A stretch of DNA of 64,000 bases from a phage. The stretch lies in the NCBI GenBank assembly GCA_020773975.1, contig GCA_020773975.1_3638.1; one strand, 5' to 3'. Made by a program: the position numbers and the translations under genes. The notes under the pieces are model-generated. The model saw only the letters and a program-made list of their open reading frames with translations, did not search any database and was not told the DNA's origin. Position 1 is the stretch's first letter. Each line of letters starts with the position of its first letter. This document shows positions 28,535 through 36,940 of the stretch, in pieces.

Positions 28535-29155
28535 TTATGCGTCAGGATGCTTGTAAAAAATATGATTCCCAACCTTCACTGTTTTCACCATGACTTTTGC
28601 CCAAGATGGCCTAACAGTAGTTGCATGATAGTACGTTGCTGATTTTGTGTAGTCAAGAGCCTTGTATAAACTTTTGTGGTCTTTATGCAATCTCATCAAG
28701 ATTTTAGCATAAAATTTAGCTCTTAACCACCTATCCTTTTCATAGACTTTAAAGGATTGCCCACCGAATGTCCAAGAGAATTGCCCCGGCTGGTAAACTA
28801 CTTTCTTGATAGTATGCGGGAAATTCTTGTCATCTTTTCTATTCAATGTGACAAAAGCGACACCCATCATTCCATAATCACCTTCTCCTCTTCCCTCTTT
28901 ATACAAGTTACAGGCAAGAATATTAAGCTCTGTATCATTCTTCTTGCAAATGTGAAGAACTTGGGGCTTCTTTGCACTTTCTTTGGCTAGAACAGGGGTA
29001 ATAGACAGAGAAAGTGCACAGCAAACTGCAAATAATAAAGATCTTATTTTCAAAACTAACTCCAGACAAATAAGCCCCATAAAGGGGCTTTCTGTTAACG
29101 ATGGGTAATATCTCCAGATACTGTGTTTACACTTCCATGGATTGTATTTGCGCAA
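28535..29155 (-). CDS. cell-wall hydrolase, SleB/CwlJ family (probable endolysin) with N-terminal signal or anchor
   Basis: ACNLYKEGRGEGDYGMMGVAFVTLNRK motif; hydrophobic N-terminus. Confidence 0.6.
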   Translation of the reverse strand: MRKYNPWKCKHSIWRYYPSLTESPFMGLICLELVLKIRSLLFAVCCALSLSITPVLAKESAKKPQVLHICKKNDTELNILACNLYKEGRGEGDYGMMGVAFVTLNRKDDKNFPHTIKKVVYQPGQFSWTFGGQSFKVYEKDRWLRAKFYAKILMRLHKDHKSLYKALDYTKSATYYHATTVRPSWAKVMVKTVKVGNHIFYKHPDA

Positions 29156-29436
29156 ACATCGCCAGACACCGAAGACACATTGCCTAAGATATCTTTTTCA
29201 ACATTAATATCCCCAGATGTTGAGATCACACCATTAGAGACATTTCCATAGACATTGATACCACCTGATGTTGTACGTACCTCTTTAGCATCACCTTTGA
29301 TAATAACTGTGATGTTTTTATCGTTTGTGGTATGAACTAAATCACCATTGATATAGACATTATCACCCTTAGTGGTGATAGAGATACTACCATTGGTATA
29401 GTTTCCAGAAATTGTATTACCATTAATCGTAATCAT
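29095..29436 (-). CDS. beta-helix repeat protein (bactofilin-like repeats)
   Basis: Repeated G-x-V/I-x-G-N/D pattern; start placed at internal Met MITINGN. Confidence 0.35.
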   Translation of the reverse strand: MITINGNTISGNYTNGSISITTKGDNVYINGDLVHTTNDKNITVIIKGDAKEVRTTSGGINVYGNVSNGVISTSGDINVEKDILGNVSSVSGDVCANTIHGSVNTVSGDITHR

Positions 29437-29607
29437 TGTTTTGTTTCTCTTTAACAATAGGTGCTTTCTGAACAGAGTATACAAATGTTTTATTGTCTTC
29501 AATAAACTTTCTGCCCTGTTCTTCATCTTCAAAAATAATTGTGTCACACTTTGCCTTTAACATACCACGTTCTACAGTTGTGTGTGTCGTAGAAACAATT
29601 AAAGCCA

Positions 29608-30642
29608 TCAAGACACCTCGTTAAGTTGTTCCATGTACCAACTACGGGCTTTATTTGTTGTAAATTTTGCCACGTCTTTCATAGAAAGAGAATTGGCTTC
29701 TAACACATCTGCTTCTTCTTTGTTGATATCGCGGTTAACCCATGCGATAAATGCCCCCAGAGATGCGATGTCCAATCCAATTTCTTGCAACCCTTGTCGT
29801 AAACGGTTCTCAGTAACTGCATACTCCACAAAATCTTTGATAGATTGCAGTTTCACAGGATCAACAGCAGCCAGGGTTTTCACTTTAGAAACAGAATGTT
29901 TTTGCCCTTTCACTTTAAACCAAAGTGCAGAAACATGTGCCAAGTGGCGATCTTTAGGTGTCCATACCACACCCTCACCAACACCAGATACGCCAAAATA
30001 TTTACCTACTGGACACTCTTTTTCCACACCTTCGGTAATCTGTGCAATTTCTGATTGCACTGTCTCTGGCATGTTAAAAGGAATATCCAGTTCCCACTTA
30101 CCAAAAGTTAAAATATTATAAATACGTTGTTCTGGTAATCCAATGCCAAGAATATCGTTTAAAGCTAACCATTTCCGATGGTCATTCTCTTTTCCTACTG
30201 CCACACGGAAAATAGTAAAGAAAGGCATGATTTCAGATACCGCAACACCTTTCTGGATACCTTTCCCTGCAAATTCCCCAGCGATTTCTACTGGGAACTT
30301 AAATTCAATACCACGATCTTCGCAGATCTGTTTGACTTGCTCCAACAGGCCTTTAGGGTCTTTTTCAACCATAAAGGCCATAAACCCATAATTATCTTCT
30401 TCCAGAGACAAAACGCGTTCTTTGGACTGGTATACAACCTCATTTTCAGAATTAAAGACTACACGGCAATTAGTCCCGTGAATTTTAACTGTTCCTACAT
30501 AAGGAATGAGATATTGGTCTGGAGAGGCAACCTTACGCTTTATATTGCCATTCTCATCACGACCATCATAAGTCAGACGGTCATTAACCGCTCGGATAAC
30601 ATTGCGAAATTGACTAGTGCTTGGGTACTTAGTTGCTTGCAT
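29608..30642 (-). CDS. RNA ligase, Rnl2 family
   Basis: Motif I KIHGTN; GEFAGKGIQKGV; EGVVW; FKVKGQKH. Confidence 0.8.
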   Translation of the reverse strand: MQATKYPSTSQFRNVIRAVNDRLTYDGRDENGNIKRKVASPDQYLIPYVGTVKIHGTNCRVVFNSENEVVYQSKERVLSLEEDNYGFMAFMVEKDPKGLLEQVKQICEDRGIEFKFPVEIAGEFAGKGIQKGVAVSEIMPFFTIFRVAVGKENDHRKWLALNDILGIGLPEQRIYNILTFGKWELDIPFNMPETVQSEIAQITEGVEKECPVGKYFGVSGVGEGVVWTPKDRHLAHVSALWFKVKGQKHSVSKVKTLAAVDPVKLQSIKDFVEYAVTENRLRQGLQEIGLDIASLGAFIAWVNRDINKEEADVLEANSLSMKDVAKFTTNKARSWYMEQLNEVS

Positions 30643-31015
30643 TACTATCTTCCTTATTAATAAAAGTCACACCAAGAGTTGCCTGGGCAAGAAGTTTCGT
30701 GATCTCCTGGCTCCATACAGGACTGGAGATAAAATGTTGTAATTGGAGGCTACCTAAGCGATAGGCGCTGTTCATCGTAATAGCATAGATCTCCCCATCG
30801 TGCATAATCAGACTTTCGACAACAGAAGTCCTGATATTAGAACCACTAAATCCACGCTTTTTGAGGTCATCTGCTAAGTATCCGCAGATACAACGCACAT
30901 CTTTTGTATCACCAAAACCGAAATAGGGTTCAGCACCAAACAGGATACCAGCGTATCTCTTCCCACAGACATAAGTATCTTTAGATACGCCTGTTACAGA
31001 TTTACTTTCCATCAT
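30629..31015 (-). CDS. hypothetical protein
   Basis: ORF. Confidence 0.4.
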   Translation of the reverse strand: MMESKSVTGVSKDTYVCGKRYAGILFGAEPYFGFGDTKDVRCICGYLADDLKKRGFSGSNIRTSVVESLIMHDGEIYAITMNSAYRLGSLQLQHFISSPVWSQEITKLLAQATLGVTFINKEDSNASN

Positions 31016-31171: not shown

Positions 31172-31780
31172 TCAGGATGCATGTTCTCTTTTGCCATCTG
31201 GGATCTCCTCTTCGTTTAAGACATAAATTGTCACATCACAATCATGGAGAACAGATTCTATCATAGTTTCTATGATTTTCCAATCCCCACCTGCTAGTCC
31301 AGCACCTATTTTTGGCAGCCCGATCTTATAATCAGACATAAAGCCATCTGTGTGCCTTTGCAAACAATCTCGCATTGCTGCTAAAGAATCGTAAAGGGCG
31401 TTATAATTCAGATCCCTCACACCCATTCTACGCCCATTATATCCGTATTGTGTGTACAGATTAAAACCCGCCAGCTTACCTTCGTTCATGACAGCCCAAG
31501 TATAACTGCCCAGTTTTGTTCGATCACCTTTCTCTGTCTTTAAATCTTCAGCATACATTTTTGGGAATGTATTCTTTATTTCTTTAGCAATTCCAGACCC
31601 CATGGTGCAAAATGTATTACAACCATGAGCTATCACATTAACATCCCTTTTAAGTGCTGCCTCTATTAAGCAACCAACTTTATACTTAAGCATTGTCTGA
31701 TACCTCTTCGCATTCGTATGGATAGATATCCAGTCTTTTCCCATTCCATTCGCAAGAGTAACACTCAAGAAAACTACCAT
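31172..31780 (-). CDS. macro-domain protein (ADP-ribose binding or hydrolysing)
   Basis: NVIAHGCN...GSGIAKEI and IGLPKIGAGLAGG resemble the macro-domain pocket motifs. Confidence 0.55.
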   Translation of the reverse strand: MVVFLSVTLANGMGKDWISIHTNAKRYQTMLKYKVGCLIEAALKRDVNVIAHGCNTFCTMGSGIAKEIKNTFPKMYAEDLKTEKGDRTKLGSYTWAVMNEGKLAGFNLYTQYGYNGRRMGVRDLNYNALYDSLAAMRDCLQRHTDGFMSDYKIGLPKIGAGLAGGDWKIIETMIESVLHDCDVTIYVLNEEEIPDGKREHAS

Positions 31781-32040
31781 TAAATATTTCTTCTCTTACT
31801 TCAAGAATATCTCCTGTTTTTGGATATCCATCAACATCCGAAAAATCAGAAATCATTTTAACCTTCATTCACAACTCCTTTCAAGGAAGGCATTCATACT
31901 TTCCAATGCCTCGCTTTTATTTTTAGCACAAACAACAAACACACGCTTATTTTTATAGGTGTATCCTGCCATGACCATATCGGATCTTTCAACCCACCAT
32001 TTCTCATGTAGCTGGTCTTTCTTAAATTTATGTTTTGCCA

Positions 32041-32497: not shown

Positions 32498-33706
32498 TTA
32501 ATTTAAAATTGCATCTACATCTTTTGCAAAGTTCTTGTGATATTCAGTAATAATCTGCATGACAACAGGATACTTCTTAAGTAACTTCGCTGGCAGTCTG
32601 TCACGAAGGCCATCTAACAAAATACCCTTCCCTGTAGAACTGTCATTAATAAACATCATGAAGACAGATGATACAAAATCACGGTTGGAATGAGCATCAT
32701 CTTTACCAAAGTTATCATACAGATATTGCAAGAAATTGGCTGAGAAGTCAATAATCTGATCATCTGTGTAGTTGGTATTCTTCATAGCCTTACGTAGCCA
32801 GATGCAACCTTGTGATCCTAGCGTCCACAATACATCAGAGCTATCAGAGCCAGTGTGTTCCTTAATTGAACCATCCATTACTTTCTCAATGGGGACCATA
32901 TCAGCAACGCGAGTATGGTAATACCATAACTCTTTCATTAACGGCCCACCAATACACCCTTGCAAAGCAGCCATTGCAAGACGGGAAGTAAGATCACCAT
33001 CCTCATACGCATACAGAATATCACTTGCAGTAACCCAAGTTCGTGGTGTGGCATATGCAGGACTGTTAATCTCATACATGGCCTCGAAGTTTTCCAGTTT
33101 ATCGGGATTGGCCTGGATAAAACCAATTACTGATGGATGCACATTTTTACGCAACGCATAATCCTGCATCCACACAGAGGCATCGTAATCAAGTTCCACA
33201 ACAATAAAACGGTTAGCCAAAGGAGCTTCCATCATGGTCACTGCCGTACCATCACCAGGACGGTTCCCTGCCGCTGCAAAAACTGCACCTTTTGGAAAGG
33301 TGTACTTACCAATTTTATGATCCAAAACAATCTGGAAAGCTACTTTCTGTAAGTAGTTATCAGCATGTAAAAGTTCGTCAAGGAAAATAATACCTTCCCA
33401 ATCTGGGTCTTCTGGCCAGAAATCTGGTAGCGCATAGACTGTACGTGTTTTTCCATTATCGTCTGTTACAGGAATCTGTACACCTACTACGTCTGTCGGA
33501 TCTTTATCCGCAAGACGAAAATCAACGAGATTATCATCTCGTTCACCAAACATCTCATTGGCAACTTGCTTCATGACTTGACTCTTACCAAGCCCAGCAC
33601 CACCAAACATCATAAGTGCTTTGTTTGCCTTCTTACAAAATTTCATGAGGCTTGGAATATCACGGAGTGTAACACGATGATCTTCAAAAATATTTCTACT
33701 AGACAT
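32498..33706 (-). CDS. AAA+ ATPase, MoxR/AAA_5-like
   Basis: Walker A GGAGLGKS; Walker B IIFLDELLHA. Confidence 0.6.
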   Translation of the reverse strand: MSSRNIFEDHRVTLRDIPSLMKFCKKANKALMMFGGAGLGKSQVMKQVANEMFGERDDNLVDFRLADKDPTDVVGVQIPVTDDNGKTRTVYALPDFWPEDPDWEGIIFLDELLHADNYLQKVAFQIVLDHKIGKYTFPKGAVFAAAGNRPGDGTAVTMMEAPLANRFIVVELDYDASVWMQDYALRKNVHPSVIGFIQANPDKLENFEAMYEINSPAYATPRTWVTASDILYAYEDGDLTSRLAMAALQGCIGGPLMKELWYYHTRVADMVPIEKVMDGSIKEHTGSDSSDVLWTLGSQGCIWLRKAMKNTNYTDDQIIDFSANFLQYLYDNFGKDDAHSNRDFVSSVFMMFINDSSTGKGILLDGLRDRLPAKLLKKYPVVMQIITEYHKNFAKDVDAILN

Positions 33707-36019: not shown

Positions 36020-36124
36020 ACTCCAAAAATATTTTCATTGGTTATGAGGAATGTACAGAACTAAAAAATCAAAGTCAACGCTTGACAAACTGGAAATTTG
36101 TGAGATACTACGAACACAAGTTAA

Positions 36125-36940
36125 GTGACAGAGATATTCTGTATGAACTGGAATGAAGAGTTTACAACCAAAGAGATAAGGTATCTCAAAACACGACTCT
36201 TTTTCAAAAAGAGGAATACCAAAGCGAGAGGTATAGAGTTTAATCTGACAGAAGATGACTGGTTTATGATGGGCAACGGATTACTTGGGAAAGGTGTTTG
36301 TGATTACACAGGCCTACCTTTTTCTGCAACACCTAATGACCCCCTCTACCCGTCTGTTGAACGAATAGATGACAAAAAAGGGTATGTTCGTGGAAACGTT
36401 TGTGTAGTCGGTAAGAGAGCAAACCAGTTAAAAGATTTTCTTGTAGACAAAAAGAAAGCTCTAACGATTGTAGATCCACTCGACATGGATATCGTCCAAG
36501 GAATGATGTTAAATATGTCAAAGGATCACTTGGAAAAGTTAAAACTTAAATACATACCTACGGAAACAGATATGAAAGAGACAGAGAACGTAATTATTGA
36601 TGAGCAGGTTGAAGAGATGAAAGAAAAATCTCTTCCTGACGATGTTGAAATTGCACTTGCATACGCAAACTACTGTAAAACATTTGCGGAAGCAGGTATG
36701 AATGTTAGCGTTACTTATGCACAATTTAAAGCTAAATATTCAAGAAACACCTGTTCTCTAACAGGGGAGAAGTTAACAAAAACACCAAAACCTATTCTCA
36801 TTATGGATTTAGATCTTGGGTTCGCAAAAGACAACTTTATTATTGTTTCTGAAAAGATGGAAACAGCATTAACACAACTCATGATCAATACGAAAATGAG
36901 TTTACCAAAAATTACAGCTATGCTGAACAAGGTGGTTTAA
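36125..36940 (+). CDS. HNH-family (HNH_3-like) endonuclease-like protein, two tandem domains
   Basis: CDYTGLPF...PSVERIDDKKGYVRGNVCVVGKRANQLK and a second degenerate copy. Confidence 0.45.
   Translation: MTEIFCMNWNEEFTTKEIRYLKTRLFFKKRNTKARGIEFNLTEDDWFMMGNGLLGKGVCDYTGLPFSATPNDPLYPSVERIDDKKGYVRGNVCVVGKRANQLKDFLVDKKKALTIVDPLDMDIVQGMMLNMSKDHLEKLKLKYIPTETDMKETENVIIDEQVEEMKEKSLPDDVEIALAYANYCKTFAEAGMNVSVTYAQFKAKYSRNTCSLTGEKLTKTPKPILIMDLDLGFAKDNFIIVSEKMETALTQLMINTKMSLPKITAMLNKVV

Follow-up and report, generated by a model that had tools for sequence, protein, structure and literature searches.

A predicted glutamine-type macrodomain ADP-ribosylhydrolase related to T4 Tk.4/AdfM in an rV5-like phage of Escherichia coli

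The window (the whole 64,000-nucleotide stretch of DNA that was analyzed, from NCBI GenBank assembly GCA_020773975.1) belongs to a lytic rV5-like E. coli myovirus (Vequintavirinae, Avunavirus-like) and is 96.8% identical to phage Av-05. A minus-strand block within it encodes a DNA polymerase, a helicase, rIIA/rIIB, a SleB-like hydrolase, RNA ligase 2 and a MoxR-like ATPase; small genes of unassigned function fill the block between these named genes, with overlapping start and stop codons. The gene studied here lies in this block, and its Av-05 counterpart is named 'putative phosphatase' in GenBank and 'macro domain-containing protein' in RefSeq. The features of the locus are as follows.

31172..31693, minus strand: macrodomain gene (MLKYKVGC...REHAS), its product predicted to be a T4-type AdfM, that is, a Gln-type ALC1-like ADP-ribosylhydrolase; from the open reading frame (ORF), Pfam Macro, PHROG 335, an AlphaFold2 (AF2) model, Foldseek, identity to T4 Tk.4 and the Av-05 coding sequence (CDS).
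31280..31324, minus strand: residues 124-138, IGLPKIGAGLAGGDW, second glycine-rich loop with invariant P127, G130, G132, G136 and W138; from conservation and alignment to PRIGCGLAGG of BT1257 and SCO6735.
31403..31462, minus strand: residues 78-97, NLYTQYGYNGRRMGVRDLNY, end of a core strand (invariant N78, Y80 and Q82), then a 14-residue loop with conserved R88; from profile alignments and conservation counts.
31577..31639, minus strand: residues 19-39, NVIAHGCNTFCTMGSGIAKEI, strand 2 and the first glycine-rich phosphate-binding loop; from invariant H23, N26 and G34 in 58 homologs.
31694..31780, minus strand: 29 additional 5' codons of the mechanical ORF, which the macrodomain protein probably does not include; from overlap with the upstream gene, the GAGG and the homolog starts.
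29608..30642, in the minus-strand block: RNA ligase 2, two genes downstream of the macrodomain gene.
32498..33706, in the minus-strand block: MoxR-like ATPase, a neighbor of the macrodomain gene.

The mechanical ORF list gives this locus as a minus-strand ORF of 202 aa at 31172..31780, which contains NVIAHGCN...GSGIAKEI and IGLPKIGAGLAGG verbatim. An earlier note, made from the letters of this DNA alone, had quoted these as the two glycine-rich motifs of a macrodomain protein encoded at 31172-31780. The ORF is real and both motifs are present, letter for letter, but the start had been placed 87 nt too far upstream, the real gene being 31172-31693. The true start is almost certainly the internal ATG at 31693, giving a protein of 173 aa plus stop codon. 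We prefer this start because sequence inspection places a GAGG 9 nt 5' of the ATG; because the upstream gene 31686..31868, which matches phrog_14198 (E 1e-32), overlaps the 29 additional codons in another frame; and because the Av-05 counterpart is annotated as a 522-nt CDS in both RefSeq and GenBank, gene prediction on a metagenome contig independently gives 173 aa as well (P0002), and the 58 homologs align from MLKYK onward.

Since the neighbors are replication and host-takeover genes, we infer that the macrodomain is made before or during DNA replication. A promoter/terminator scan was uninformative (22 promoter-like sites vs 23 expected). Profile searches with the ten neighboring proteins gave no match to an ART-like family and no adjacent DarT, and a six-frame HMM search detected no second macrodomain in the window. 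The order MoxR ATPase ... macro ... Rnl2 ... rIIA is kept in a Mydovirus that has a 65%-identical macrodomain homolog. We considered the macro-Rnl2 neighborhood as a possible functional module; it is kept within the Vequintavirinae and absent in T4, Phapecoctavirus and Pakpunavirus, and was therefore attributed to synteny and not counted in favor of a module. Nudix, lysozyme and internal-head-protein annotations near the Av-05 macro gene were also set aside as context, as they belong to a T4-like block that is missing from the window.

By sequence and predicted structure, the product is a stand-alone macrodomain of the ALC1-like (TARG1/DarG/Poa1p) class, not of the MacroD, PARG or viral Mac1 type. 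The earlier note had proposed a profile search as a check on its macrodomain reading. In that search Pfam Macro (PF01661) lay just above threshold, a borderline match of 22.3 bits vs a cutoff of 22 (E 1.3e-4, profile positions 2-115 of 118), and PHROG 335 ('phosphatase') was matched with E 1.5e-61. Run against solved structures, the family profile identified BT1257 (4e-22), SCO6735 (2.5e-19), TARG1 (3e-16), Poa1p (3e-11) and DarG (1e-10), with 72.8 bits for SCO6735 vs 46.6 bits for Poa1p, and all 15 of its PDB sequence matches fell within this set of five. An AF2 model built with 58 homologs (pLDDT 94.9, pTM 0.90) contains six strands and six helices and, with Foldseek, matches the three-layer α/β/α macrodomain fold with its central mixed sheet. 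Foldseek returned a probability of 1.00 to TARG1, BT1257, DarG and Poa1p. The best match was TARG1 (target-normalized TM-score of 0.87), followed by BT1257, DarG, Poa1p and SCO6735; the top 20 matches were all to one of these five proteins, and alphavirus macrodomains appeared later with lower scores. The two glycine-rich loops, which in macrodomains hold the ADP-ribose diphosphate, are MGSGIA (residues 31-36) and IGAGLAGG (residues 129-136), in which G34, G130, G132 and G136 are invariant across the 58 homologs. The macrodomain claim is thus borne out by profile, fold and both loops. A homolog of the family is encoded in 2,963 of 50,697 phage records, mostly from myoviruses of enterobacteria, Pseudomonas, Vibrio and others; a published survey reported macrodomains in about 41% of myoviruses (PMC9503650).

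Twelve positions (H23, N26, G34, N78, Y80, Q82, Y97, P127, G130, G132, G136 and W138) are invariant across the 58 homologs. N26 aligns with N22 of DarG and N23 of PhiKZ AdfM. Q82 stands where T. aquaticus DarG and TARG1 have their catalytic lysine (K80 and K84, respectively) and where SCO6735 has Gln85: profile-sequence and profile-profile alignment (probability 98.5%) both set it opposite DarG K80, and in the profile-PDB alignment FNLYTQ(82)YG pairs with ANMIGQ(85)HG of SCO6735 (chain residue 105 minus a 20-residue tag). The same glutamine is present in T4 Tk.4 (NLYTQ) and BT1257 (NMIGQ). By analogy we infer a catalytic role for Q82. Two other registers, in which the DarG lysine falls opposite N86 (plain MAFFT alignment of eight macrodomains) or Y83 (pairwise BLAST), were rejected because the profile-sequence, profile-PDB and profile-profile alignments all give Q82. 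For the TARG1 sequence in the MAFFT alignment, the consistency check covered the K84 and D125 numbering. The loop after Q82 has 14 residues in 45 of the 58 homologs and carries Arg or Lys at position 88 in 88% of them; the exact positions of its basic residues differ from that of SCO6735 K89. The second glycine-rich loop has no Asp equivalent to TARG1 D125, the residue at that position being A134. Position 30 is Thr here and in 50 of the 58 homologs, and with the conserved H23 it aligns with S30 and H23 of Poa1p, both of which are mutated in Poa1p structure entries and which we take to be the catalytic residues of that enzyme.

T4 Tk.4 is 35% identical to the window protein over its full length (E 2e-24, residues 1-156 vs 2-148) and scores 121 bits against the family HMM, with the motifs IAHGCN, MGSG, GDxTKLGSY, FNLYTQ and P(K/R)IGAG in common. 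The T-even homolog adjoins vs, that is, it is gene tk.4. According to a 2025 preprint, tk.4 is the one T4 gene that the phage needs on E. coli expressing DarTG2, and a clean knockout is sensitive; Tk.4 was named AdfM because its deletion sensitizes T4 to DarTG2 (bioRxiv 10.1101/2025.11.20.689424). The data for Tk.4 consist of this genetic phenotype, and the enzymology was assumed by the authors (10.1101/2025.11.20.689424). PhiKZ gp104, a chimallivirus macrodomain, was independently also named AdfM, and its de-ADP-ribosylation was shown biochemically with an N23A mutant as the inactive control (PMC13309987). It is only 23% identical to the window protein. Both Tk.4 and the window protein fall in phrog_335, which also takes the Lys-type gp104. 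However, gp104 has an FPTK motif with the lysine and matches M. tuberculosis DarG (9e-25) without any match to BT1257 or SCO6735, whereas the window family shows the reverse, and the two AdfM proteins are therefore assigned to different subgroups. On these alignments the chimallivirus AdfM is a lysine-type copy of DarG, and T4 AdfM and the window protein are members of a glutamine-type group with SCO6735 and BT1257. The catalytic mechanisms of the two AdfM types probably differ, and an orphan bacterial hydrolase is a more likely origin for the T4-type AdfM than a captured antitoxin.

We propose, with moderate confidence, that the window protein, produced ahead of replication or while it proceeds, counters DarT2 as a DNA ADP-ribosylglycohydrolase, because it is a relative of T4 Tk.4/AdfM, which protects T4 from DarTG2. 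Host DarT2 would attach ADP-ribose to thymidines in single-stranded phage DNA and so block replication. The macrodomain would bind the ADP-ribose through its two glycine-rich loops, Q82, H23 and N26 would position the distal ribose, and water would cleave the ribose-thymine bond. Unmodified DNA and free ADP-ribose would be released, replication would be restored and the phage would escape DarTG2. The thymidine-linked substrate, catalysis by Q82 and an anti-DarTG2 phenotype are each suggested by analogy, and thymidine-linked ADP-ribose on ssDNA is the likely substrate, as for DarG2 and PhiKZ AdfM. The Gln-type relative from Streptomyces coelicolor provides a precedent: SCO6735 hydrolyzes thymidine-linked ADP-ribose on ssDNA and protects against DarT with no cognate DarT in its genome, its Q85A variant is inactive, and an activated water was proposed for the wild type (PMC9411070). 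The earlier note had suggested that DarT-like ADP-ribosylation could be reversed; the support for this is that of homology, through the genetics of T4 Tk.4/AdfM and the biochemistry of SCO6735 and PhiKZ AdfM. Other Vequintavirinae carry a NADAR that counters DarTG1 (PMC11257639), and the subfamily is therefore under DarTG pressure. A search with the published 5' primer sequence for the Bas60-type NADAR (only 25 nt) gave no match, a weak negative. Some observations run against the anti-DarT2 reading, namely that identity to T4 Tk.4 is only 35%, that the post-Q82 loop differs in length, that the protein lacks the catalytic lysine found in DarG and TARG1, and that some homologs lie beside NAD+ salvage genes and not DNA-metabolism genes.

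Macrodomains are often promiscuous (PMC9503650), and the natural substrate is therefore not readable from sequence alone. One alternative, which we consider unlikely, is that the substrates are soluble ADP-ribose derivatives and not DNA. Among the candidates are ADP-ribose-1''-phosphate or cyclic phosphate, which arise as by-products when RNA is repaired with NAD or as toxic products of RES-type toxins; O-acetyl-ADP-ribose and immune signals derived from ADP-ribose are others. The outcome would be clearance of a toxin or signal, or the supply of free ADP-ribose to phage enzymes that rebuild NAD+. Older annotations of the family ('phosphatase / A1pp') point this way. Poa1p ranks with the best matches in both sequence and fold, and since its H23 and S30 pair with H23 and T30 of the window protein, an ADP-ribose-1''-phosphate phosphatase activity is a possibility; however, the family profile favors SCO6735 over Poa1p by the bit scores given above, and the full annotation of Av-05, in which many genes are 'hypothetical', names neither a KptA/Tpt1 nor a 2H phosphoesterase. 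Genomic context also offers some encouragement: RNA ligase 2 lies two genes downstream, a proximity kept in a Mydovirus; a Pakpunavirus homolog directly follows Prs-like and NAMPT-like genes; metagenomic phage contigs carry NAPRTase, NAD synthase or nicotinamidase genes within 3-6 kb; and NAMPT-like and Prs-like genes are present elsewhere in Av-05. Against this, T4, Phapecoctavirus and Vequintavirinae do not have either the macro-Rnl2 or the macro-NAD-gene neighborhood in common. One survey of NAD/ADP-ribose systems in viruses made the case that small ADP-ribose derivatives are the main targets of phage macrodomains (PMC9503650), but the sole functional datum on a close family member is the anti-DarTG2 phenotype of T4 Tk.4.

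Removal of ADP-ribose from proteins or RNA, either to reverse a host transferase toxin (for example CmdT, which modifies mRNA) or to tune modifications made by phage transferases, seems to us improbable. The top fold match, TARG1, is a protein (Glu/Asp) ADP-ribosylhydrolase, but its Lys84/Asp125 dyad is replaced here by Q82 and A134. SCO6735 also acts on proteins (PMC9411070), and E. coli has an mRNA ADP-ribosylating defense system (PMC11618068); however, none of the family members is known to act against ADP-ribosylation of RNA or proteins, and no ADP-ribosyltransferase is named in the Av-05 genome annotation, where many genes are 'hypothetical'.

A broader hypothesis, which we regard as quite improbable, is that the Gln-type phage family, which comprises the gene studied here, T4 Tk.4 and thousands of further phage homologs, is not a dedicated anti-DarT2 enzyme but erases ADP-ribose in general, in connection with the rebuilding of NAD+ by the phage. 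ADP-ribose taken from DNA, RNA, proteins or ADP-ribose-derived signals might then pass to Prs-like and NAMPT-like (NARP1-type) enzymes, which would explain the repeated adjacency of homologs to NAD+ salvage genes. Non-catalytic action, as an ADP-ribose binder or sponge or by direct binding and blocking of DarT, has precedents in the dead SCO6735 Q85A, which still inhibits DarT by interaction (PMC9411070), and in the anti-DarT factors AdfA and AdfB, which work by binding (PMC11481870), but is very improbable for a 173-aa protein with nothing like the C-terminal DarT-binding domain of DarG and with H23, N26 and Q82 invariant across 58 homologs, as fits an enzyme.

The macrodomain annotation is already in public records, and the function of the family was recently described. 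What is new is modest: an AdfM is predicted in the Vequintavirinae, and the T4-type AdfM is recognized as glutamine-type, distinct from the DarG-like chimallivirus AdfM. Should the anti-DarT2 reading be true, rV5-like (Vequintavirinae) phages, which are in use for E. coli phage therapy and biocontrol, would carry a built-in counter to DarTG2, and host-range predictions for DarTG2-positive strains should include a macrodomain counter. The result refines known biology and introduces no new principle.

Comparison with known systems places the window protein at different distances from each. It resembles yeast Poa1p, an ADP-ribose-1''-phosphate phosphatase (PDB IDs: 6LFQ-U), in its sequence and fold match, in H23 and in Ser/Thr at position 30. 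Unlike the window protein, Poa1p has Ser at the Q82 position and a large insertion before the second loop, and its pathway partners (Tpt1 and a cyclic phosphodiesterase) are not annotated in the lineage of the window phage (Av-05). Human TARG1 (OARD1; PDB IDs: 4J5Q-S) has in common with it a His that precedes the first loop (H32 in TARG1, H23 in the window protein) and a PRIGCGL-type second loop, but the Lys84/Asp125 catalytic dyad of TARG1 is absent. TARG1 is in addition able to release thymidine-linked ADP-ribose from DNA (PMC12879935).

The macrodomain of DarG2 from T. aquaticus and M. tuberculosis (PDB IDs: 5M31, 5M3E and 5M3I) is matched with a target-normalized TM-score of about 0.78 and has the active-site Asn in common. 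Identity as a DarG antitoxin was considered and rejected. Of four features, the active-site Asn is present and three are missing, as the window protein, unlike DarG, lacks the catalytic Lys/FPTK motif, the C-terminal DarT-binding domain and an adjacent DarT. NCBIfam DarG (NF048014) gives 37.8 bits vs a cutoff of 250 over profile positions 9-150 of 338 only, and with both PADLOC and NCBIfam the match is confined to the macrodomain part of DarG and falls well short of the equivalog cutoff. The protein is therefore not filed as a DarG antitoxin. Like PhiKZ AdfM, it is a stand-alone phage protein.

SCO6735 of Streptomyces coelicolor (PDB ID: 5E3B) and BT1257 of Bacteroides (PDB IDs: 2AFC and 2FG1) are the best sequence relatives with solved structures. 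Both have the N-x-x-x-Q motif, the long post-Gln loop and the PxIGxGLAGGxW second loop seen here. They are bacterial chromosomal genes whose products are about 23-26% identical to the window protein. SCO6735 has been described under a DNA-damage-type (RecA-NDp) promoter, and its Val25 corresponds to Gly24 here; BT1257 is a protein of no known function.

T4 Tk.4/AdfM differs from the window protein in its post-Gln loop, which has 8 residues in T4 and 14 here, and in lacking the conserved Arg. The T4 neighbors are tk and vs, whereas those in the window phage are MoxR and Rnl2, and the anti-DarTG2 phenotype is that of the T4 member only. T4 DNA is glucosyl-hydroxymethylated, and we know of no DNA hypermodification in the Vequintavirinae. 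The two proteins are alike in being stand-alone macrodomains of ~155-173 aa that have Gln at the catalytic position, and in both cases the gene lies among non-structural genes of a lytic E. coli myovirus.

The genes around the macrodomain gene of the window, which is predicted to encode a relative of the T4-type AdfM (Tk.4), include the following minus-strand features and, at the border of their block, one intergenic region.

29095-29547, minus strand: repetitive ORF, matching only phrog_3163 (a protein family of unknown function)
29608-30642, minus strand: RNA ligase 2-type gene (Pfam RNA_ligase; phrog_548, E 4e-73)
30629-31015, minus strand: 128-aa protein named 'methyltransferase' via phrog_16099, and likewise in the RefSeq record of Av-05, the window's closest relative
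32498-33706, minus strand: MoxR-like AAA ATPase (phrog_1297, E 2.5e-105; weak Pfam bpMoxR match)
about 36020-36125: intergenic region between minus-strand and plus-strand gene blocks

Relative to the macrodomain gene, the RNA ligase 2-type gene is positioned two genes downstream, a proximity that is also seen in Mydovirus AV124 and is not retained in the other phage groups compared. The names of several small neighboring proteins are doubtful. The 128-aa protein has no Pfam match at E<=0.01, and its designation as a methyltransferase looks unsupported, while the PHROG-derived names 'exonuclease' and 'baseplate wedge subunit' for ORFs of 60 and 59 aa upstream of the macrodomain gene are implausible because these ORFs are so small. 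The ORF at 29095-29547 gave no match in a Pfam search; it is repetitive, rich in G, D/N, I/V and S/T, with numerous short units of the form ...GD(I/V).. and ..SG.., and its sequence suggests a beta-helix-like repeat protein, for which the true start is probably internal. At the other end, the minus-strand block bordering the intergenic region at about 36020-36125 is the one that carries the macrodomain gene, and the promoter scan placed promoter-like hexamers in both orientations within this region, which may be a divergent promoter region.

A search of the whole window found one macrodomain gene and no second. The Av-05 record (NC_025830) has a second, with 85% identity to T4 Tk.4, inside a T4-like block at about 102.8-114.1 kb (L001 20800-25900 and L009 1-6600, segments of that record). 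This block lies outside the window and is absent from it; it encodes internal head proteins, denV, nudix e.1, lysozyme and a regB-like endoribonuclease, together with vs, tk.4-tk.1, tk and rI. In place of the block, window 39.3-50 kb has its counterpart at 13.6-24.8 kb of Av-05. The T4-like block of the Av-05 record could reflect either a chimeric assembly or genuine mosaicism.

In individual cases among phages, macrodomain and NAD+ salvage genes show a loose association. In the Pseudomonas phage vB_PaeM_B31, a Pakpunavirus (segment L006, 970-4480), Prs-like and NAMPT-like genes are followed directly downstream by a macrodomain homolog, and in metagenomic phage contigs (L011-L013), NAPRTase, NAD synthase and isochorismatase-family genes lie 3-6 kb or less from macrodomain homologs. 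The NAMPT-like and Prs-like genes of Av-05 are at 10.5-13.2 kb, beyond the window.

The MoxR-like AAA ATPase gene lies upstream of the macrodomain gene, four genes away. A MoxR ATPase gene of the Vequintavirinae phage Bas54, bas54_0063, was reported to be necessary for overcoming the predicted defense system DS-28 (10.1101/2025.11.20.689424). The stretch of the window that holds the MoxR-like ATPase and macrodomain genes may be an anti-defense neighborhood.
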